From assembly GCA_017556745.1 (NCBI GenBank), contig JAFYMF010000055.1, positions 171 to 64,170 on the forward strand: 64,000 nucleotides of DNA. Direction: 5' to 3'. The translations under genes were made by a program, and so were the position numbers. How positions within the stretch are numbered: the stretch's first letter is position 1; each line of letters begins with the position of its first letter. This document shows, piece after piece, positions 3,509 through 49,545 of the stretch. Origin of the DNA: Clostridia bacterium. GTDB lineage: Bacteria; Bacillota; Clostridia; Oscillospirales; CAG-272. The notes below the pieces were generated by a model, which worked only from the letters and a program-made list of their open reading frames with translations, had not been told where the DNA came from and did not search any database.

Positions 3509-5011
3509 TCAGTTAAAGTAGGGATATTCGCCGGGATATCTGAGTTCCTTAGGAAGATTTACAGATATATCGGTGATACCAAGATACTTAAGGGTGTTGA
3601 AGAGAGTACGTCCAACGTGAGCAAAGCCAACGCCTGCGTGATGAGGATATCTCTTCTCAATAAGAACGTGACGGTAGAAACGAGCCATCTCGGGAACTGC
3701 GATAACCGCACGGCCGCCGAAGGAATTGGTAGGCATATCGAGAACCTCACCCTCTGCGATGTAGGAGATAAGCTTAGCATCAGCAGTAGACTGAAGTCTG
3801 AAGAGAGTAATATCGGAAGCCATGATCTCACCGTCAAGAGTACCGCGGGAAACGTTAGGCTCGGAATCGGGCTCAAGGTTTCTCTTCATGATCAGCTGAT
3901 ACTGCATCTTCTTGCCCTCCTTAAGCAGGCAAGCAGAGGTGTTTCCGCAGTGGAAGCCCATAAAGAGATCCTTTGCGGTGTAGTCGCCGACAACCTTTGC
4001 GTTTTCGCTGATAAGGTCTGCGGGAACGGTGTTGTTAATGTCAAGAAGAGTAACAGTGCTGTCGGTAACAACAGTGAGTATGTACTCGGTAAGTGCACCG
4101 TATATATCGGTCTCACAAGCAACGGGAATACCCTTTGCGGTGAGACGGGAGTTTACGTAACAGGGAACAAACTTGAACATAGTCTGAAATGCAGGCCAGC
4201 ACTTGTTAGCAAATGCAAAATACTTAGCCGCGCCAAGATTCTTCTCCGCCCAGTCAAGAAGAGTGATCTCAAACTGTGCAAGCTTAGGAAGGATACCGGG
4301 ATAGCAGTTACCGTTCTCGCCAAGCTCTGCTTCCATCTCCTTGATAACACCCTCAATACGAGGATCATTATCATGAGCCTGGAAAGCCTCAAGAAGATCA
4401 AGCTCACTGTTCTCCTGGATCTCAACACCGAGATCGTAGAGAGGAGCGATAGGAGCGTTACAAGCAAGGAAGTCATAGGGTCTGGGACCGAAAGTAAAGA
4501 TCTTAAGATTTGCAAGACCGTTCTTAACAGCCGCAACAGGAACATATTCCTTGATCATAGCTGCAACGTCAGCAGCACCGCCTACAGGATATTCGGGAAT
4601 ATAAGCCGCAAGCTTACGAAGGCCGAGGTTATAGGATGCATTGAGCATACCGCAGTATGCGTCACCACGTCCGTTGATAAGATCCTTGCCGCTCTCCTCA
4701 GCTGCCGCTACAAACATAACGGAATTGCCACGAACTGCGGTAAAACGCTGAGCAAGCATGGTCTCAGGGCCCTCGGGACCGAAGTTACCGAGGAACACAA
4801 CAAGAGCATTTACACCTGCTGCATTGATGTCATCAAGAGCCGCAAGAGCATCCTTCTCATTCTCAACTATAACCTTGCTCTCATATATATCAAGGCCCAT
4901 CTTCTCGCACTCAGCTATGACTGCGATTCTGCGCTTCTCAGAAAGAGTAGCTGGGAAACAGTCACGGCTTACCGCAACTATACCGAGTTTAACTACAGGG
5001 GTATTATTCAT
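3509..5011 (-). CDS. L-fucose/L-arabinose isomerase-like family protein (COG2407-like), function uncertain
   Basis: 500 aa. Overall resemblance, recognised by eye, to FucI-like sugar isomerase family proteins. ATG 5011 follows GGAG by 7 nt. Lies only 52 nt downstream of the rnfB stop, same strand. Confidence 0.55.
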   Translation of the reverse strand: MNNTPVVKLGIVAVSRDCFPATLSEKRRIAVIAECEKMGLDIYESKVIVENEKDALAALDDINAAGVNALVVFLGNFGPEGPETMLAQRFTAVRGNSVMFVAAAEESGKDLINGRGDAYCGMLNASYNLGLRKLAAYIPEYPVGGAADVAAMIKEYVPVAAVKNGLANLKIFTFGPRPYDFLACNAPIAPLYDLGVEIQENSELDLLEAFQAHDNDPRIEGVIKEMEAELGENGNCYPGILPKLAQFEITLLDWAEKNLGAAKYFAFANKCWPAFQTMFKFVPCYVNSRLTAKGIPVACETDIYGALTEYILTVVTDSTVTLLDINNTVPADLISENAKVVGDYTAKDLFMGFHCGNTSACLLKEGKKMQYQLIMKRNLEPDSEPNVSRGTLDGEIMASDITLFRLQSTADAKLISYIAEGEVLDMPTNSFGGRAVIAVPEMARFYRHVLIEKRYPHHAGVGFAHVGRTLFNTLKYLGITDISVNLPKELRYPGEYPYFN

Positions 5012-5063: not shown

Positions 5064-5930
5064 TTATCTGACTTTAAGATTTTCTTCAAAATCCTCGGGC
5101 TCAACCGTAAGACCGATCTTCTCCTGCTGATCCCTTGACCAGATTATGTGTCTGGGGCAGTTGTCAACACACTTACCGCAGTCAACACACTTTGAGTAAT
5201 TGATGGATGCGATAAAGCCATCCACCTTAATAGCACCTGACTCACATACTTTCTCACACTTGTGGCAACCAATACATCCAACGTCGCAGAATTGTCTGGT
5301 TATCGCCCCCTTGTCGACTGAGCAACAACCAACCCAGTGAGCACTGTCGTAAGGGATCAGACGGATTATATGTTTGGGACAAGAAGCTACACATACACCG
5401 CAACCGCGGCATTTGTCATAGTCTACTGCCGCTACACCGTTAACTATCTTTATAGCGTCAAAAACGCAGCTCTTTACACAAGAACCGAGTCCCACGCATC
5501 CGTTAGGACAAACCTTGTCACCGCCGCCCATACGTACAGCCGCACTACAGTCCTTTACACCCTCGTAATGATACTTCTTTTTAGCATTATTAAGGTGAGT
5601 ACCGGAGCACATTACCTGCGCACGAATTCGGATGGCCTTCTCAGGTGCAACACCCATTATCTCAGCTATTTCCGCTACCATTGCATCGCCGGCAACGGTA
5701 CATGCGTTTACCTTGGCTTCGCCCTTGACAATTGCCTCAGCGCATGCCTCACAACCGGTATAACCACAGCCACCGCAGTTGGCGCCGGGCATGATCTTGG
5801 TGATCTGCTTTATTCTCTTATCTACCTTGACGGCAAATTTTGCGCTGGCAAATGCAAGAATAAGACCCAGCACACCGCCGATAAACGCAATACACAGCGT
5901 GGGAATAATTATTTCACTAACAAATTCCAT
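5064..5930 (-). CDS. rnfB: Rnf electron transport complex subunit B (polyferredoxin)
   Basis: N-terminal TM helix, a CGGCGYTGC cluster motif and several 4Fe-4S ferredoxin motifs (CRGCGVCVASCP, CVDCGKCVDNCP). Last gene of the rnf order C-D-G-E-A-B. Confidence 0.9.
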   Translation of the reverse strand: MEFVSEIIIPTLCIAFIGGVLGLILAFASAKFAVKVDKRIKQITKIMPGANCGGCGYTGCEACAEAIVKGEAKVNACTVAGDAMVAEIAEIMGVAPEKAIRIRAQVMCSGTHLNNAKKKYHYEGVKDCSAAVRMGGGDKVCPNGCVGLGSCVKSCVFDAIKIVNGVAAVDYDKCRGCGVCVASCPKHIIRLIPYDSAHWVGCCSVDKGAITRQFCDVGCIGCHKCEKVCESGAIKVDGFIASINYSKCVDCGKCVDNCPRHIIWSRDQQEKIGLTVEPEDFEENLKVR

Positions 5931-10955: not shown

Positions 10956-11032
10956 GGCGGAATAGCTCAGTTGGCTAGAGCAATCGGTTCATACCCGATA
11001 GGTCGTGGGTTCAAGTCCAACTTCCGCTACCA
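10956..11032 (+). tRNA. tRNA-Met (anticodon CAT; a lysidine-modified tRNA-Ile2 cannot be excluded)
   Basis: Hand-folded cloverleaf: D stem GCTC/GAGC, anticodon stem ATCGG/CCGAT with loop TTCATAC, encoded CCA. Has a G1-U72 wobble and one G-A mismatch in the T stem. Confidence 0.8.
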
Positions 11033-11107
11033 GGCCCGTTGGTCAAGCGGCTAAGACACCGCCCTTTCACGGCGGTAACACGAGTTCGATTCTCGTACGG
11101 GTCACCA
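11033..11107 (+). tRNA. tRNA-Glu (anticodon TTC)
   Basis: GGCCCGTTGGTCAAGCGG...CCGCCCTTTCACGGCGG...GTTCGATTC...ACGGGTCACCA. Folds as a canonical cloverleaf with encoded CCA. Directly abuts tRNA-Met. Confidence 0.93.
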
Positions 11108-19353: not shown

Positions 19354-19374
19354 ATATGTCTCCTTCTGCGGCAA

Positions 19375-20838
19375 TCACTCTCCGAGTACCTCTCTAACCA
19401 GTGAGGCTTCATCAAACGGATGTTTGCCGCTGCTGTCTATCTCGTATTTTTCATGTCCTTTTCCGCAAAGCAAAACTATACTTCCGCTTGGAGTACTCTC
19501 AAGGGCAAATTTTATTGCAGTCCTGCGGTCAGGAATAATTTTATGCGGTTTTTCTTTGTCAATGCCTTTCATAATATCTCTTAATATCTGTTCGGGCGGT
19601 TCACCTCTACAGTTATCAGAGGTTATTACAGTCAGATCAGCAAGCGCCGTTGCAATTCTGCCCATTTCAGCGCGTTTACTTCTGTCCCTATCCCCTCCAC
19701 AACCGAAAAGCACGGTAATTTTCTGTCCTTCTTTTCTGAAAGCTCTAACAGAATTCAATACATTTTTCAGCGCATCCGGGGTATGGGCATAATCGATAAA
19801 GACAATAGGGGTATTTTCAGTTACAGTTATCTTTTCCATCCTGCCGTCTATACCGGCTAAGTCTCGAACCGCAGATATTATATTCTCCGGCATAATACCG
19901 CAGATGAGAGCAACGGATGCCGCCGCTAAAATATTATATACTGCAAATTCACAAGCAAGTGGGGAATAAATGCTGATAGATCCACCGCGACCGTGGAGCA
20001 GGTATCGAACACCACTTTCACCAAGCAGCTCTACGTTACGGGCCGAAAAGATTGCCCTCTCGTCCATACCATAGCTATAACTTTGTGGATAAACTCTAAA
20101 AAGAAGGTCACCGTATTTATCGTCAATGTTAAAAAGTCTAATTTGAGACATATCGAACAACCGTGATTTTGCTTTGAAATATTCCTCCATATTCCCGTGA
20201 TAATCAAGATGTTCCGGAGATAAATTTGTAAATATTCCAACAAAAAATTTTAACCCAGCGAGTCTACCCTCGGCTAAAGCATGAGATGATGCCTCCATAA
20301 AGACATACTCAACGCCCTCATTTTTCATTTGACTGAGTATTCTATACACGGTAGAAATATCAGGAGTTGTAAATGAATGGTTTCCAGAAGACGGCACGGC
20401 TATGACTTCATTGTTTATTTTACACGAGAGCGTTCCTATTGTACCGGTTTTATAACCTGCACGGCGGAATATCGCATCAAGTATAGTGACAGTTGATGTT
20501 TTTCCATTGGTACCGGTGACCGCAACAAGCTTCATTCCTCTTGACGGGTAGCCGTAGAATTTATCAAGCAAGGCTTGAAGAGCCACCTTTGTGTCAGACA
20601 CGAAAAATACCGGTATATTCCCTATATCACCTGTAGCACATCCTGCCTCTGCAATAATCGCAGCAGCACCGTTCTTGACCGCCGATTCGCAGTAATTATG
20701 TCCGTCAGTTTCTCTGCCCGAGATACATACAAACAGACTGCCTACAGTTACTTTTCTTGAATCGTCGGTGATATCACTGACACAAATATCTCCTTGATAT
20801 TCATGTTTAACAACTGAAATAAGCTCTGAAAGTTTCAA
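19375..20838 (-). CDS. murE: UDP-MurNAc-L-Ala-D-Glu--2,6-diaminopimelate ligase
   Basis: Mur ligase P-loop VTGTNGKTST. DNPR-like motif present as DNCR. dcw context. Confidence 0.92.
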   Translation of the reverse strand: MKLSELISVVKHEYQGDICVSDITDDSRKVTVGSLFVCISGRETDGHNYCESAVKNGAAAIIAEAGCATGDIGNIPVFFVSDTKVALQALLDKFYGYPSRGMKLVAVTGTNGKTSTVTILDAIFRRAGYKTGTIGTLSCKINNEVIAVPSSGNHSFTTPDISTVYRILSQMKNEGVEYVFMEASSHALAEGRLAGLKFFVGIFTNLSPEHLDYHGNMEEYFKAKSRLFDMSQIRLFNIDDKYGDLLFRVYPQSYSYGMDERAIFSARNVELLGESGVRYLLHGRGGSISIYSPLACEFAVYNILAAASVALICGIMPENIISAVRDLAGIDGRMEKITVTENTPIVFIDYAHTPDALKNVLNSVRAFRKEGQKITVLFGCGGDRDRSKRAEMGRIATALADLTVITSDNCRGEPPEQILRDIMKGIDKEKPHKIIPDRRTAIKFALESTPSGSIVLLCGKGHEKYEIDSSGKHPFDEASLVREVLGE

Positions 20839-25847: not shown

Positions 25848-26036
25848 TAGGTAATCTTGTATTTCTAAAAAGTTTTTTAACAAAATTACGCATTATTATT
25901 AATTTTTTTACCATATTTCGTTAAATATAACATTTTAATACAAAAGGGTTATAAACAGAGCATGGAGATGTAATAATTTATTGACAGTGAATATTTGTTT
26001 TAATCTATAGATCGGGAGGAGTGAATTGCCATTGGT

Positions 26037-26092
26037 AATTCCTGTCCCCACCGTATAAAGGATTTATGTATGCCCACGAGGGGACAGCAATT
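26037..26092. repeat. 13-bp-stem hairpin (AATTCCTGTCCCC / GGGGACAGCAATT)
   Basis: Inverted repeat with one C-C mismatch and a 30-nt loop. Confidence 0.7.
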
Positions 26093-26128
26093 GGTGTTTA
26101 GGAAGAATTATAATTATATTCGTCACCA

Positions 26129-26326
26129 CCCTACCGCGTTCAAGCACATTTTGAAAAAACATCTCTAACCTCGTAGGGGCGACCTTTGGTCGTCCGTTTT
26201 AATTATATCTTTATCGCTCGACAATCGGGCGAACACAGTTCTCCCCTACGGGTGTGATAGGCTCTGTCGAATAAAATACGGAATTAAGCTCTAAACAATC
26301 CATACCGCGTTTGAGCACATTTTTGA
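26129..26326. repeat. 26-nt direct repeats (171-bp spacing) flanking a GC-rich compound palindrome
   Basis: CCCTACCGCGTTCAAGCACATTTTGA (26129) versus CCATACCGCGTTTGAGCACATTTTTGA (26300). Between them, outer stem CGTAGGGG (26172) / CCCCTACG (26243) encloses hairpins GGGCGACC-TTT-GGTCGTCC and GGGCGAAC-ACA-GTTCTCCC. Confidence 0.8.
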
Positions 26327-26328
26327 GG

Positions 26329-26652
26329 ATACATAAAACAAAGGAAAAAACTCCTTCCACCACCGAATTCGGAATTTCGAAAATTCGAATTCTTGTGGTC
26401 CCCCTCCCTCAGGAGGGAGGCTTGAATGCACATGTTATACTGCTATAATTCTTGAGTATTAGTGGCGCATTCCACAAGAATTACTTGGTTATTCGAAGAA
26501 CACCGTTTTGCTAACGCAAAAACGTAATTCTTCTTTAGTTAGGCTCCCTCCAAGAACATTGTTTACAATGTTTCGGGAGCTGTCGAGCGTTATTTGCGAA
26601 GCAAATATCAAGACTGGGTGAGTATATTTGGAATGATGAAACTACATGAAAC
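26329..26652 (-). repeat. single copy of the multi-hairpin repeat family seen at 31128-31809 (inverted genomic orientation)
   Basis: The reverse complement shares identical blocks AGCCTCCCTCCTGAGGGAGGGGGACCACAAGAATTC (36 nt, 26387-26422) and CCGAATTCGGTGGTGGAAGGAG (22 nt, 26351-26372). It also shares the TTTCAT...ACTC(A/C)CCCAGTC block, with equivalent but sequence-diverged hairpins. Confidence 0.85.
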
Positions 26653-26656
26653 AATG

Positions 26657-26727
26657 AAAAAAACTCCGCCTTATGAGCGGAGTTTTTTAGAAAAGATAAA
26701 AGCGGCTCACCCGAAGGTAAGCCGCTT
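26657..26727 (-). terminator. two tandem terminator hairpins downstream of the surface-protein gene
   Basis: ACTCCGC-CTTATGA-GCGGAGT flanked by A/T runs (26657-26688). AGCGGCTCACC-CGAA-GGTAAGCCGCT followed by a T-rich tract on the minus strand (26691-26727). Confidence 0.75.
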
Positions 26728-26760
26728 TATTATTTAATCATTTCTGATTATCAAGGCTAA

Positions 26761-30392: not shown

Positions 30393-31076
30393 ATGAATAT
30401 CAAATCTCCCTGTTTATGTAACCGTTTATCGGTTGTTTCTGAATTCGTTCGTCAAGGAGCTGTTGTTGCCGACATCGGAACAGATCATGCTCTTCTTCCG
30501 ATATATCTTCTAAGGACGGGAAAAGCAAAAAAAGCCATTGCTGCAGATATTGCAGAGGGTCCCTTAGCCGCCGCTGCGAAAAACATTTCTGCATACGGCC
30601 TTTCAGATAAAATAACAACCGTACTTTCAGACGGTCTTGACAAAATTGCCCCCTTCTCCCCCACAGACATAACCATCTGCGGTATGGGAGGTGAAACTGT
30701 TATTGATATCATATCAAAAGCTCCCTGGGTCAAGGATCCGGATATACGCTTGATATGTCAGGCACAGAGCTTTCTCCCCGTACTGAGAGAATATCTCCTC
30801 AAAGAAGGATTTTATATAGCAGATGAAGCAATTTGCCGTGACCGTGGAAAGTTTTACGTATGTATAGTTGCGGAATACGGTCAAAGTGAAGATGACTACA
30901 GTGAAACAGAGCTGCAAATCGGACGGCGTAATATTGAAAAATCAGAACCGATCCTCAAGGATTATGCGTCGCACCTTATAAATATACTTGAAAAAAAATC
31001 CGACGGATTAAAAAAAGCAGGAATAGACGCAAGTGATACCGATAAGCTGACAGAAGCACTAAAAAAGTATTTATAG
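30393..31076 (+). CDS. trmK: tRNA (adenine22-N1)-methyltransferase
   Basis: VADIGTDHALLPIYL and GMGGE motifs of the TrmK/YqfN family, 227 aa. Confidence 0.88.
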   Translation: MNIKSPCLCNRLSVVSEFVRQGAVVADIGTDHALLPIYLLRTGKAKKAIAADIAEGPLAAAAKNISAYGLSDKITTVLSDGLDKIAPFSPTDITICGMGGETVIDIISKAPWVKDPDIRLICQAQSFLPVLREYLLKEGFYIADEAICRDRGKFYVCIVAEYGQSEDDYSETELQIGRRNIEKSEPILKDYASHLINILEKKSDGLKKAGIDASDTDKLTEALKKYL

Positions 31077-31127
31077 TTATCTAATATAGCGTTAGATAAA
31101 AAGCTAAATTTATTTAAAACAAGCTTT

Positions 31128-31477
31128 GCTGACAGTCCTCTCAAGAGGGGGCCTAACTTAATAATATATTACTATAGGAAAATTTTCGTTTTCGCTTTTG
31201 CGAAACAAGTGTCACGAAGGCACCTGAGAAAATTTTCGCAGAACGGGCAATCTTTGACTTAGCTTTTTCCGGCGCCCGTTCAGCCTCCCTCCTGAGGGAG
31301 GGGGACCACAAGAATTCCGAAATTCGAAGAATTTCCGAAATTCGGAGAATTTCCGAATTCGAAGAATTTCCGAATTCGGTGGTGGAAGGAGTCGGTTTCC
31401 CGTTCCTTTGTTTCATATAACTTCATCATTTCAATCATACTCCCCCAGTCATCGGGACATTAGCTCCGCAATGTCCT
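31128..31477 (+). repeat. multi-hairpin repeat unit A (350 nt)
   Basis: Starts with boundary motif GCTGACAGTCCTCTCAAGAGGGGGCCT. Hairpins: TTTCGC/GCGAAA, AGGTG/CACCT, GAACGGGC/GCCCGTTC, CCTCCCT/AGGGAGG and GGACATT/AATGTCC. Contains four 17-nt mini-hairpin repeats. Confidence 0.9.
31312..31377 (+). repeat. tandem 17-18 nt mini-repeats GAATT(T)CCGAA(A)TTC, 4 copies
   Basis: GAATTCCGAAATTC-GAA-GAATTTCCGAAATTC-GGA-GAATTTCCGAATTC-GAA-GAATTTCCGAATTC. Each copy can fold as GAATTT-CCG-AAATTC. Several GAATTC sites. Confidence 0.9.
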
Positions 31478-31809
31478 GCTGCCAGCCCCCTCAAGAGGGG
31501 GCCTGACTTGATAATATATTACTATAGGAAAATTTTCGTTTTCGCTTTTGCGAAACAGGTGTCACGAAGGCACCTGAGAAAATTTTCGCAGAACGGGCAA
31601 TCTTTGACTTAGCTTTTTCCGGCGCCCGTTCAGCCTCCCTCCTGAGGGAGGGGGACCACAAGAATTCTGAAATTCGGAGAATTTCCGAATTCGGAGAATT
31701 TCCGAATTCGGTGGTGGAAGGAGTCGGATCCCCGTTACTTTACTTCATATAACTTCATAATTTCAACCATACTCCCCCAGTCATCGGAACATTAGCTCCG
31801 CAATGTCCT
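31478..31809 (+). repeat. multi-hairpin repeat unit B (332 nt)
   Basis: Roughly 95% identical to unit A by eye. Has three instead of four mini-repeats (31662-31709). Starts with GCTGCCAGCCCCCTCAAGAGGGGGCCT. Confidence 0.9.
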
Positions 31810-31836
31810 GCTGCCAGCCCCCTCGAGATGGGGCCA
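31810..31836 (+). repeat. third copy of the 27-nt boundary motif (degenerate)
   Basis: GCTGCCAGCCCCCTCGAGATGGGGCCA, immediately upstream of the DUF559 gene. Confidence 0.8.
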
Positions 31837-31869
31837 ATATAGTCCGATATTACACAAAAACCGAACTTA

Positions 31870-32268
31870 ATGTTTTTTAAGGCGGTGGTCAAAATGCCTA
31901 TTCACTACAATAGTAATAATTTACCTCTTGCAAAAGCACTAAGAAAAGAAGCAACAAAAGAAGAAAATCACTTATGGTATGATTTTCTATCGAAACATAA
32001 TCCACGATTTCAACGTCAAAAGCCTATTGATAATTTCATAGCTGATTTTTATTGTCACAAAGCAAAGTTAGTAATCGAAATAGATGGCTCTCAACATTTT
32101 ACAAAAGTCGGTAAACAAAAAGATCATTTCCGTACGGAGATACTTGAGGGATACGATCTTAAAGTCATAAGGTTTAACAATCTGCAAATACGGGAAAACT
32201 TCCCCGGGGTTTGTATGTATATTGATAAAGTCGTAAAATCAATATGTAACACAGAGGACAACTCGTGA
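31870..32268 (+). CDS. DUF559 endonuclease-domain protein (Vsr/restriction-endonuclease-like fold)
   Basis: LRKEATKEENHLWYDFL...FQRQKPIDNFIADFYCHKAKLVIEIDGSQH...LKVIRFNNLQI matches the DUF559 pattern. An alternative start at ATG 31894 is possible. Confidence 0.8.
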   Translation: MFFKAVVKMPIHYNSNNLPLAKALRKEATKEENHLWYDFLSKHNPRFQRQKPIDNFIADFYCHKAKLVIEIDGSQHFTKVGKQKDHFRTEILEGYDLKVIRFNNLQIRENFPGVCMYIDKVVKSICNTEDNS

Positions 32269-32297
32269 TTTTTTGTTTCACTCCCACAGCCAGCTTC

Positions 32298-32324
32298 GCT
32301 GCCAGCCCTCTCAAGAGGGGGCCT
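32298..32324 (+). repeat. fourth copy of the 27-nt boundary motif
   Basis: GCTGCCAGCCCTCTCAAGAGGGGGCCT, 29 nt after the DUF559 stop and 37 nt before the nif3 start. Confidence 0.85.
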
Positions 32325-32361
32325 AAAGTAAGAACCATGTTGAAGAAAAGGAGGCAAACAG

Positions 32362-33123
32362 GTGAATATAAGAGAATTCGCAAAAAAGATGGATGAATTG
32401 CTGCCGTTGTCGCTCAGATGTCCGTGGGACAACGATGGTCTGCTCTGTGCATCAAAGCCTGACAGAGAAATAAAAAAAGTTCTTGCTACTCTTGATGTAA
32501 CAGAGGATGCAGTCACCCGTGCAATCGATGGCGGTTTTGATATTATCATTTCTCACCATCCATTCATCTTTAAGCCTCTTAGCTCCGTAGTTGCAGACAG
32601 CCTTTCCGAAAAAGATCTTTTCAGACTCATCCAAAACGGTATCGGTGTACTGAGCTACCACACCAGACTTGATGCCGCAGAAGGTGGTGTTGCCGACAGA
32701 CTCTCCTCTCTCATTAACCTTAGAGACGTAGTATCTGCAGGAGAGATCGGAGAAAACATTCTGCGACTCGGTTATAGCGACATAAACGATCTAAAAGAGT
32801 TTTCGACAGGTATCAAACAGGCCTTGAATTCACCTGTTGTAACAGTTGGAGACAGCGGACTACCCGTTCATAAGGTTGCCGTTTGCCCCGGTGACGGCAA
32901 GGACTTTGTAAAGATAGCCTCCTCTCTCGGCGCTGACACATACGTCACCGGCAGATTGTCATACAATATTATGTGCGATGCGAAAAAGATGGGAATAAAT
33001 CTTATTGAAGCAGGACATTATTTCACAGAGAAACATATAACCGAATATTTTGCCAATGTATGCCACGATCTCTGTGGCGCACAGACAGAAATATTCGAAT
33101 CATTTAATATAGATATAATATAA
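32362..33123 (+). CDS. Nif3-like dinuclear metal center protein (YqfO family)
   Basis: GTG start behind GGAGG. Motifs ISHHPFIF and IEAGHYFTE are typical of the NIF3 family. 253 aa. Confidence 0.85.
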   Translation: MNIREFAKKMDELLPLSLRCPWDNDGLLCASKPDREIKKVLATLDVTEDAVTRAIDGGFDIIISHHPFIFKPLSSVVADSLSEKDLFRLIQNGIGVLSYHTRLDAAEGGVADRLSSLINLRDVVSAGEIGENILRLGYSDINDLKEFSTGIKQALNSPVVTVGDSGLPVHKVAVCPGDGKDFVKIASSLGADTYVTGRLSYNIMCDAKKMGINLIEAGHYFTEKHITEYFANVCHDLCGAQTEIFESFNIDII

Positions 33124-49363: not shown

Positions 49364-49372
49364 ATCAATACA

Positions 49373-49545
49373 TTATTCTTCGGGGCAAGGTGAGAATCCT
49401 TACCGGCAGTAACAGTCTGCGACCCGCATTTGCGGCTGAACGGGTGTGATTCCCGTACCGACGGTCATAGTCCGGATGAGAGAAGAAGTATGCGTTTCTC
49501 CGTATATTTATGCCCCAAGACCGTTATGTCTTGGGGCTTCTTTTT
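49373..49545 (+). promoter_or_regulatory. FMN riboswitch (RFN element) with intrinsic terminator
   Basis: TTCTTCGGGGCAAGGTGAGAATCCTTACCGGCAGT...GTGTGATTCCCGTACCGACGGTCATAGTCCGGATGAGAGAAGAAG matches conserved RFN blocks. Terminator GCCCCAAGAC-loop-GTCTTGGGGC plus a T-run at 49512-49545. Confidence 0.9.

Follow-up and report, generated by a model that had tools for sequence, protein, structure and literature searches.

The genes trmK and nif3 are normally adjacent, so what occupies the 1,285 bp that separate them in this Clostridia bacterium, and how did it get there? We addressed this question in a 64,000-nucleotide stretch of contig JAFYMF010000055.1 (assembly GCA_017556745.1), hereafter called the window, by combining domain searches, repeat and structure analysis, and comparison with related loci. 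Our analysis shows a lineage-specific insertion of a small predicted nuclease gene (DUF559) together with copies of a two-hairpin palindromic repeat, which we call an arm, that flanks this gene family across gut Clostridia. We found no description of this pairing, which looks like a selfish DNA module, in the literature searched.

The trmK-nif3 spacer contains repeated units and a DUF559 gene

The first-pass annotation, made from sequence alone, described a spacer cut by a repeated 27-nt motif into two gene-less units and one unit carrying a DUF559 gene, and this observation holds. The motif GCTGCCAGCCCCCTCAAGAGGGGGCCT is present at 31128 (three mismatches), 31478 (exact), 31810 (three mismatches) and 32298 (one mismatch), all on the plus strand, with spacings of 350, 332 and 488 nt as had been noted, although only one of the four copies is exact; none of 100 shuffled sequences gave any match. 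The two gene-less units are 96% and 93% identical in ungapped blocks, and 90.6% identical overall because of one 18-nt indel in a 17-nt-period minisatellite, which has 4.0 copies in the first unit and 3.0 in the second. The unit folds far better than shuffled sequence on either strand (z = -6.7 on the plus strand and -5.6 on the minus strand). In line with the annotation, no transposase, integrase, reverse transcriptase or Cas domain was found among the called genes within 6 kb on either side in same-species contigs. A third, diverged copy of the unit core lies on the minus strand at about 26350–26660.

The open reading frame at 31870–32268 matches PF04480 over profile positions 6–107 of 109 (94.8 bits against a cut-off of 20.6). 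While it was originally read as 132 residues long, its homologues all start at MP/MSLxYN, suggesting that translation probably begins at 31894 to give a protein of 124 residues. The AF2 model (pLDDT 79.7) has a predicted restriction-endonuclease-like fold, with best PDB matches to 3HRL (E 1e-4) and to the catalytic domain of the Vsr-like homing endonuclease I-Bth0305I (3R3P; Foldseek probability 0.99), consistent with a small Vsr-like PD-(D/E)XK nuclease.

The 27-nt motif is part of a two-hairpin arm

The interpretation offered with the first-pass annotation, in which the motif acts as punctuation between three modules, is only partly supported. The spacer is indeed an insertion between genes that are normally adjacent, its repeats match no Rfam family, and other genomic copies exist. 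However, the 27-mer does not delimit cassettes; it is hairpin 1, the outer hairpin, plus the 3′ half of hairpin 2 of a ~45–50-nt arm, read in reverse. The GCCTCCCTCCTGAGGGAGG...GGAAGGAGT core of each unit is the same arm read forward, with the minisatellite in its second loop, so that each unit is an inverted arm pair, like a REPIN. The unit boundaries chosen previously are therefore out of phase with the real repeat element, and the gene-less units and the DUF559 segment are not three equivalent modules, but two tandem copies of an inverted arm pair followed by a DUF559 gene bracketed by two more arms (Table 1).

The arm has three parts: a nearly invariant GC-rich hairpin (CCTCCCTC-NNN-GAGGGAGG), a second hairpin whose sequence varies but always pairs, and a conserved tail, GGAAGGAGT. 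Regular-expression detectors for the arms were too strict and missed many copies, and we therefore used a covariance model (R1) and an nhmmer profile. Model R1, built only from forward arms, hits the regions of the 27-mer on the minus strand and the unit cores on the plus strand, showing that the same element occurs in both orientations. In total, the window has seven arms in two spacers. Since MAFFT alignments do not align the variable second hairpin, covariation was counted on the model-fitted alignment, which leans towards the structure; in it, 97% of cells are paired and 5 of 6 pairs of hairpin 2 show double changes. Loops are mostly GCA, GAA or GNNA, and G-U pairs and A-C mismatches are equally frequent (12 against 12), arguing against an RNA-strand bias.

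Table 1 Features of the trmK-nif3 spacer and of the second repeat-rich spacer in the window.
Coordinates	Strand	Feature	Evidence
30393–31076	+	trmK, tRNA (adenine22-N1)-methyltransferase; left border of the insertion	Pfam TrmK, 2.4e-40; directly adjacent to nif3 in four relatives
31122–31154	-	Arm a1, reverse, truncated; keeps hairpin 1 and half of hairpin 2, has lost the ACTCCC tail; contains the first 27-mer	Motif match with 3 mismatches; a direct-repeat family (D3); comparison with full arms
31128–31809	+	Two gene-less units (31128–31477 and 31478–31809), a tandem duplication of one inverted arm pair with a 127-nt structured spacer	Identity of the units; a single chimeric unit in same-species contig L001, two in L002
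31155–31281	.	Swollen spacer between arms a1 and b1, about four extra hairpins; repeated at 31505–31631	Predicted fold; three palindromes (I4, I8 and I9)
31282–31392	+	Arm b1, forward: hairpin 1 GCCTCCCTC-CTG-AGGGAGG, hairpin 2 GACCAC...GTGGT with the minisatellite in its loop, tail GGAAGGAGT	R1 hit at 31282; equivalent to arm b2; compact 45-nt form with the same 27-nt core in MAG contigs L019–L021
31310–31379	.	17-nt palindromic minisatellite AAGAATTTCCGAATTCG, 4 copies, in the loop of hairpin 2 of arm b1; three copies at 31661–31711 in arm b2	Tandem Repeats Finder; 18-nt indel between the units
31439–31504	-	Arm a2, reverse, complete: tail ACTCCCCCAGTC, long hairpin 2 GGGACATT...AATGTCC, hairpin 1 GCCCCCTC-AAG-AGGGGGC (the exact 27-mer)	R1 on the minus strand, E 4.4e-7; 7e-4 with filters off
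31632–31724	+	Arm b2, forward, 3 minisatellite copies	R1, E 2.2e-6
31771–31836	-	Arm a3, reverse, degenerate (3 changes in hairpin 1); immediately upstream of DUF559	R1, E 0.05; motif match with 3 mismatches
31894–32268	+	DUF559 gene, 124 aa (alternative ATG at 31870, 132 aa); small Vsr-like PD-(D/E)XK nuclease (predicted)	PF04480, 3.7e-27; more than 5,100 homologues, best at 70–78% identity; D51, E62, D64 and H68 invariant in 30 homologues; AF2 model
32280–32324	-	Arm a4, reverse, compact and complete, 12 nt after the DUF559 stop; contains the fourth 27-mer	Best R1 hit in the window, 25.9 bits, E 9.1e-7, full model length
32362–33123	+	nif3 (DUF34/NIF3 family); right border of the insertion	Pfam, 7.2e-60
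26350–26422	-	Separate forward-type arm with AATTCGAA x3 in its loop, in a second repeat-rich spacer (26000–26760) with no DUF559 nearby	BLAST hits of the unit; sequence; R1, E 5.3e-7

Arms accompany this DUF559 subfamily in many gut Clostridia

To determine whether the element is peculiar to this locus, we examined other loci of the same DUF559 subfamily. In 21 of 25 non-redundant DUF559 clusters with enough flanking sequence, an arm lies within 260 nt of the gene (15 upstream, 16 downstream, 10 both), at a density of 3.9 per kb in the flanks against 0.053 per kb elsewhere, i.e. about 74-fold over background; the profile used for this count misses the swollen arms of the window, which is consequently scored as having no arm. 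The packing is tight, with forward arms ending 5–22 nt before the start codon, so that the tail serves as the Shine-Dalgarno sequence, and with an arm overlapping the stop codon, so that C-termini such as ASLREGGGPR are arm-encoded. Arms occur in both orientations, usually as inverted pairs with the tails outward: of 54 adjacent arm pairs, 31 are reverse-then-forward, typically with a gap of 20–35 nt, compared with 127 nt in the units of the window. The element is not peculiar to this locus, but is the local, swollen form of a repeat that accompanies this DUF559 subfamily in many gut Clostridia.

The reverse association does not hold, since seven loci chosen by arm sequence alone contain no DUF559. 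A scan of reference genomes with the 20-mer TCCTGAGGGAGGGGGACCAC returned only three hits, all at ends of short MAG contigs, which tend to break at arms, and so gives no genome-wide copy number, while a scan of viral contigs with the degenerate 27-mer gave no hits.

The insertion is lineage-specific and varies between strains

Comparison of the trmK-nif3 junction in relatives, a check suggested by the first-pass annotation, revealed empty sites: four relatives with TrmK proteins 57%, 55%, 53% and 51% identical have spacers of 65, 76, 42 and 1 nt, respectively, with no DUF559 and no arms. A sister species has the junction occupied, but in a different arrangement, and unit number differs between strains of the same species (Table 1). 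Elsewhere, a ~550-nt cassette that is 77–95% identical has the same two ends in three unrelated contexts, implying mobility, although no target-site duplication was seen at these ends. We had also considered the differing surroundings of human-gut DUF559 clusters as a sign of mobility, but rejected this because they are the same kind of type I restriction-modification locus with variable hsdS segments.

A possible selfish module of nuclease and repeats

Together, these data suggest, tentatively, that the spacer holds a DNA-level selfish module that entered the trmK-nif3 junction in the common ancestor of this species and its sister species. In this view, DUF559 would recognise the arms, as the invariant interrupted palindrome would suit a dimeric nuclease and the second hairpin could be read as an extruded DNA hairpin, and would nick or cut there. 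Repair and recombination at these breaks, and between arms, would insert the cassette at new sites, duplicate or delete arm units, and leave gene-less arms behind as non-autonomous copies or solo remnants. In the window, the arms have swollen, through a minisatellite in one loop, a lengthened hairpin 2 and a 127-nt hairpin-rich spacer, and one arm pair has recently duplicated in tandem.

The anatomy is well supported: our data directly show the identity of the arms in both orientations, their conserved structure without RNA-strand bias, their tight but asymmetric association with DUF559, the shared cassette ends, the lineage-specific insertion, the copy-number change between strains, and the intact catalytic residues on a matching predicted fold. 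The mechanism is inferred, namely that DUF559 has nuclease activity, that it acts on the arms, and that breaks drive the spread. A 120-residue PD-(D/E)XK nuclease cannot join strands itself, so any transposition-like insertion would need host functions. Moreover, the two arms flanking DUF559 in the window are in the same orientation and one is degenerate, and the locus looks old and vertically inherited, with 70% DUF559 identity against 74–79% for the neighbours, so this copy may no longer be active.

Alternative explanations

It remains possible, though we consider it unlikely, that the arms are a general REP-like intergenic repeat family of Clostridia, spread by another enzyme or by plain recombination, and that DUF559 is a cellular nuclease, for example in Vsr-like mismatch repair or defence, whose gene merely sits in, or was captured between, such repeats. 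Arms without DUF559, both in the window and in the independently selected loci, are in keeping with this, as are the proposal that a Caulobacter DUF559 protein is a Vsr-like repair enzyme (PMC12907096), the position of the human-gut clusters in type I restriction-modification loci, which suggests a methylation-linked role, and an IS200-like Y1 transposase 1.3 kb from DUF559 in one locus group. However, that transposase is absent from the window and from all other DUF559 loci examined, the gene and arms share precise common ends when they move, and chance co-location does not predict a positionally exact association, with the ribosome-binding site and stop codon inside arms, across unrelated contexts.

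Less likely still is a role of the arms as RNA, in which hairpins transcribed within the trmK...trmD operon and the DUF559 mRNA control processing, stability or translation, or neutralise DUF559 in the manner of type III toxin-antitoxin repeat RNAs. The spacer has no predicted terminator or strong promoter and is therefore probably co-transcribed, so an RNA role cannot be excluded; folding on the plus strand is very strong, the tail is a Shine-Dalgarno sequence, tandem arrays of 1–4 forward arms lie directly upstream of DUF559 in several loci (L005–L010 and L047), and some hairpin-2 loops of reverse arms are UUCG or UACG. Nevertheless, arms occur in both orientations relative to the gene and as inverted pairs, the minus strand folds almost as well, G-U pairs are not favoured, and arms are dispersed far from any DUF559, unlike type III antitoxin repeats. 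PADLOC gave only weak hits to nuclease domains and no ToxN-like match. Rfam gave no hit in the region at gathering score, and none on 18 canonical loci apart from one unrelated tRNA, with relaxed searches yielding only chance hits to miRNA-type hairpins, snoRNA/sRNA models and Clostridiales-1, all far below their gathering scores. A programmed inversion switch that flips DUF559 or neighbouring segments appears very unlikely. "DUF559 domain-containing protein" is enriched 14-fold among predicted programmed-inversion targets (PMC9881135), the forward arm before and the reverse arm after the gene are inverted repeats in the canonical layout, and the gut clusters lie beside hsdS genes, yet the arms bracketing DUF559 in the window are direct repeats, no recombinase gene lies within 6 kb on either side, and three same-species contigs show the same orientation. 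The published enrichment may simply reflect the flanking inverted arms.

Relation to described elements

The closest parallel is with REP/REPIN elements and their RAYT transposase in Proteobacteria (PMC3116915, PMC3337134), which are likewise short GC-rich intergenic palindromes, commonly inverted doublets, with gene-less copies, strain-dependent copy number and a small nuclease-type gene itself flanked by the repeats. REP/REPIN systems have tens to hundreds of copies per genome, while the count made here is of seven arms in two spacers of the 64-kb window. Here, the flanked gene is DUF559 rather than a Y1/HUH transposase, the host is a member of the Clostridia, and the arm has two hairpins plus a conserved tail, its consensus AGCCTCCCTC...GGAAGGAGT lacking the 5′ GTAG; a different, GTAGGG-type hairpin family at 26130–26260 is not the arm. 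The same DUF559 cassette sits in several contexts, whereas RAYTs are typically single-copy and vertically inherited. With free-standing and intron-borne homing endonucleases, especially I-Bth0305I, the element shares a small, putatively selfish nuclease gene of the same predicted catalytic fold wedged between conserved genes, occupied in two species and empty in four relatives, but it has no extra DNA-binding domain, occurs at non-homologous sites and travels with dispersed repeats, which classical homing genes do not.

Integron cassettes resemble the locus in that an ORF is followed at once by a 60–140-nt imperfect palindrome with conserved ends and a variable middle, which fits the original picture of hairpin-delimited modules in an array. 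However, no integrase was found among the genes within 6 kb on either side, the arm ends are ACTCCCTC/GAGGGAGT rather than RYYYAAC/GTTRRRY core sites, the only cargo is DUF559, and the palindromes are dispersed singly around the genome. BOX elements of Streptococcus pneumoniae are also modular, highly structured, intergenic and probably co-transcribed, with conserved end modules and a variable number of internal sub-repeats; no protein partner is known for BOX, and we saw no sequence resemblance by inspection. IS200/IS605-type elements and their derivatives have ends defined by hairpins rather than long terminal inverted repeats, and no target duplication was seen at the ends of our cassette either, but the module has no TnpA (Y1) or TnpB gene. 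A MITE is not supported, as the doublets do have inverted ends but show no target-site duplication at the shared cassette ends in three contexts and no related transposase. Literature searches on DUF559 with repeats or mobile elements, on REPIN/RAYT in Firmicutes and on MITEs in Clostridia returned no description of the element.

Implications

DUF559 is a very large family with no established function outside a few Vsr-like proposals, and here it is tied, with positional precision, to a specific structured repeat in many gut Clostridia. A further-reaching possibility, which we regard as unlikely on present evidence, is that this subfamily is the dedicated partner enzyme of a previously unrecognised class of REPIN-like repeats in Firmicutes, which would be a second route to a repeat-plus-nuclease association, independent of HUH transposases, and would give a function to a large family of unknown function. 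If the nuclease does act on the arms, REP-RAYT-type associations would not be unique to HUH transposases or to Proteobacteria, there would be a known source of genome plasticity, of assembly breaks and of spurious small ORFs in gut Firmicutes, and the enrichment of DUF559 among predicted programmed inversions would be explained. If it does not, the arms are still an unannotated, widespread repeat family that genome annotators currently translate into false protein termini.

The trmK–nif3 spacer

The spacer between trmK and nif3 spans 1,285 bp and contains one DUF559 ORF. The 27-nt motif reported in the first-pass annotation was found at four sites, with 3, 0, 3 and 1 mismatches, where none is expected by chance. 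The two gene-less units (350 and 332 nt) are 96% and 93% identical in ungapped blocks, and differ by one 18-nt step of a 17-nt palindromic minisatellite. The array described in that annotation is real. The unit folds much better than shuffled sequence on both strands (z = -6.7 and -5.6), whereas no terminator or convincing promoter was predicted in the spacer. Since homologues all begin at MP/MSLxYN, the DUF559 start is more likely the one giving 124 aa than the upstream alternative.

A diverged third copy of the unit core lies on the minus strand in another repeat-rich spacer, between mraZ and the gene for a 975-aa surface protein. This second spacer also holds a different hairpin family, GTAGGGG-hairpin-CCCCTAC, which sits next to repeats of the type described below in metagenome-assembled genome (MAG) contigs L020 and L021 too, and whose GTAG foot recalls classical REPs.

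To place the spacer in its evolutionary context, we compared the junction between strains and relatives. Same-species metagenome contigs carry either two units (contig L002) or one chimeric unit (contig L001), and a fourth contig ends 114 nt after trmK, as assemblies do at repeats. A sister species (TrmK 74%, Nif3 79% identical) has trmK, then DUF559 (70% identical), then about 1.15 kb of related but rearranged repeats, then nif3. In contrast, relatives with TrmK 57%, 55%, 53% and 51% identical have trmK–nif3 spacers of 65, 76, 42 and 1 nt, with no DUF559 and no repeat. The spacer is an insertion, and a dynamic one.

One repeat arm in two orientations

DUF559 homologues at 52–78% identity are very numerous in Clostridia/Ruminococcaceae MAGs and gut metagenomes. 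We read their flanks in loci retrieved by exact protein matching and in 80 metagenome loci, and two recurring elements appeared: A, ACTCCCTCAGTC-hairpin-GACAGCTCCCTC-NNN-GAGGGAGCC, which is an extended form of the 27-nt motif, and B, AGCCTCCCTC-NNN-GAGGGAGG-TGG-hairpin-GAC-GGAAGGAGT. The centre of each window unit is a B element whose second loop holds the minisatellite, and the compact 45-nt form with the identical 27-nt core occurs in ruminant-gut MAG contigs. The interpretation in the first-pass annotation, of an array of modules punctuated by the motif at this junction, was thus only partly supported, as the spacer is indeed an insertion but the repeat is not local.

We built a covariance model from six forward (B) copies, which hit A elements on the opposite strand throughout the loci and in the window, showing that A and B are one element, here called an arm, in two orientations. 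Adjacent arms are mostly reverse-then-forward with a 20–35-nt gap (31 cases), with a further 12 forward-then-reverse pairs and 11 forward tandems. The common unit is therefore an inverted doublet of 110–135 nt with the tails outward. The window units are the same doublet with a 127-nt hairpin-rich spacer, a lengthened hairpin 2 in the reverse arm, and a minisatellite in the forward arm. The sister species has its own 18-nt minisatellite, CTTAGTCAGACGTATGTG x3, just after DUF559, and an 87-nt insert in the second loop of its forward arm; arm loops seem to tolerate or attract insertions. In both species a conserved segment, GTTTCATATAACT...CATACTCCC, precedes reverse arms, and on the opposite strand it reads as a ribosome-binding site plus ATG and a short ORF start, M(K/E)LYET, for which we have no explanation.

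Features of the window and of related loci (E-values of arms and B elements are those of the covariance model)
Feature	Position	Strand	Details
trmK	window 30393-31076		left of the spacer
nif3	window 32362-33123		right of the spacer
27-nt motif	window 31128		3 mismatches
27-nt motif	window 31478		0 mismatches
27-nt motif	window 31810		3 mismatches
27-nt motif	window 32298		1 mismatch
DUF559, more likely start	window 31894		124 aa
DUF559, alternative start	window 31870		
B element, centre of unit	window 31282-31392		minisatellite in second loop
B element, centre of unit	window 31632-31724	+	E 2e-6; minisatellite in second loop
Arm	window 31439-31504	-	E 4e-7
Arm	window 31771-31834	-	E 0.05
Arm	window 32280-32324	-	E 9e-7
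Arm	window 26350-26422	-	E 5e-7; no DUF559
Diverged third copy of the unit core	window around 26350-26660	-	
Second repeat-rich spacer	window 26000-26760		
GTAGGGG-hairpin-CCCCTAC family	window about 26130-26260		
Weak arm-like match	window 19359-19408	-	E 0.23; may be a decayed arm
Conserved segment preceding reverse arms	window 31410-31450, 31742-31782, 26610-26660; L102 (sister species) 4560-4600 and 5105-5160		
Minisatellite after DUF559 and 87-nt loop insert	L102 4195-4250 and 4974-5102		
IS200-like Y1 transposase	L006/L008 4747-5247, L009 4016-4516		166 aa; PF01797, 24.9 bits
DUF559 cluster in a type I restriction-modification locus	L042 202-2840		example from human-gut loci L036-L101
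FMN riboswitch (105.6 bits) and two adjacent tRNA genes	window 49372-49491; 10956-11104		both ordinary

Association of arms with DUF559

To quantify the association, we grouped the DUF559 genes into 34 clusters at 90% nucleotide identity or more. Of the 25 clusters with at least 260 nt on both sides, 21 have at least one arm within 260 nt: 15 upstream, 16 downstream and 10 both. There are 51 arms in 13 kb of flanks against 8 in 151 kb elsewhere. The layout is stereotyped, with a reverse arm at about -160 to -113, a forward arm ending 5–22 nt before the start, so that its tail is the ribosome-binding site, a reverse arm over the stop codon, and a forward arm at about +45 to +100. Many annotated C-termini (ASLREGGGPR and similar) are simply translated arm sequence. 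The converse association does not hold, as seven loci picked by arm sequence alone contain no DUF559, and neither does the window's second repeat-rich spacer.

The human-gut DUF559 clusters lie directly after the hsdM and hsdS genes of type I restriction-modification loci (Pfam N6_Mtase/HsdM_N and Methylase_S), and in several of these loci (e.g. L041, L091) fragments of the hsdS 3' end are repeated on both sides of the DUF559 module. In loci L006, L008 and L009, an intact IS200-like Y1 transposase lies 1.3 kb downstream of DUF559; in strains L005 and L007 it is split into two ORFs, and it is absent from the window and from the other DUF559 loci.

Structure of the arms and mobility

On the model-fitted alignment of 70 distinct arms, 97% of cells pair, and eight of 14 pairs show double changes, including 5 of 6 in the second hairpin. 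Shuffled and slid controls score far lower, although this alignment leans towards the model. G-U and A-C mismatches are equal, 12 each, loops are mostly GCA, GAA or GNNA, and arms are found in either orientation. Together, these observations lean towards a DNA-level role, or at least a strand-symmetric one, but the numbers are small.

We also detected a ~550-nt cassette consisting of a terminator-like hairpin (CGGCAGAG...CTCTGCCG), a TGnTATAAT promoter, DUF559, a forward arm and a reverse arm. It has the same two ends in three unrelated contexts: next to a POR gene, next to an unknown gene, and between MetRS and DUF1846. The copies are 77–95% identical, and no target duplication was seen. Forward-arm arrays vary from 1 to 4 copies among strains at one locus.

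The DUF559 protein

The only PDB sequence match of the protein is 3HRL, a Neisseria DUF559 protein. Its AF2 model (pLDDT 79.7) matches 3HRL and the catalytic domain of the Vsr-like homing endonuclease I-Bth0305I, and D51, E62, D64 and H68 are invariant. Searches of NCBIfam, PADLOC and PHROGs added only generic nuclease matches. A previous survey of the PD-(D/E)XK superfamily groups DUF559 with Vsr and the I-Bth0305I fold (PMC3424549), and a Caulobacter DUF559 protein has been proposed as Vsr-like (PMC12907096). The repeats have no Rfam match, and we found no paper describing their association with DUF559.

Interpretation

Our data support the anatomy of the locus well: a lineage-specific insertion, and one arm family in two orientations that tightly brackets a conserved nuclease gene. 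The mechanism, by contrast, is inference. We tentatively favour a DNA-level selfish module in which DUF559 would act on the arms, and break repair or recombination would move, duplicate and delete them, although this reading falls short of even odds. A generic repeat family with DUF559 as a passenger remains possible but less likely, and a role at the RNA level appears unlikely. An inversion switch is the least likely, and is improbable here because the two arms around the gene are direct repeats.

The module works most like REPIN-RAYT, but it is not a member of that family, because the partner gene is not a Y1 transposase and the GTAG foot is absent. A previous study found that "DUF559 domain-containing protein" is enriched 14-fold among predicted programmed-inversion targets, without explanation (PMC9881135); flanking inverted arms would account for that enrichment.
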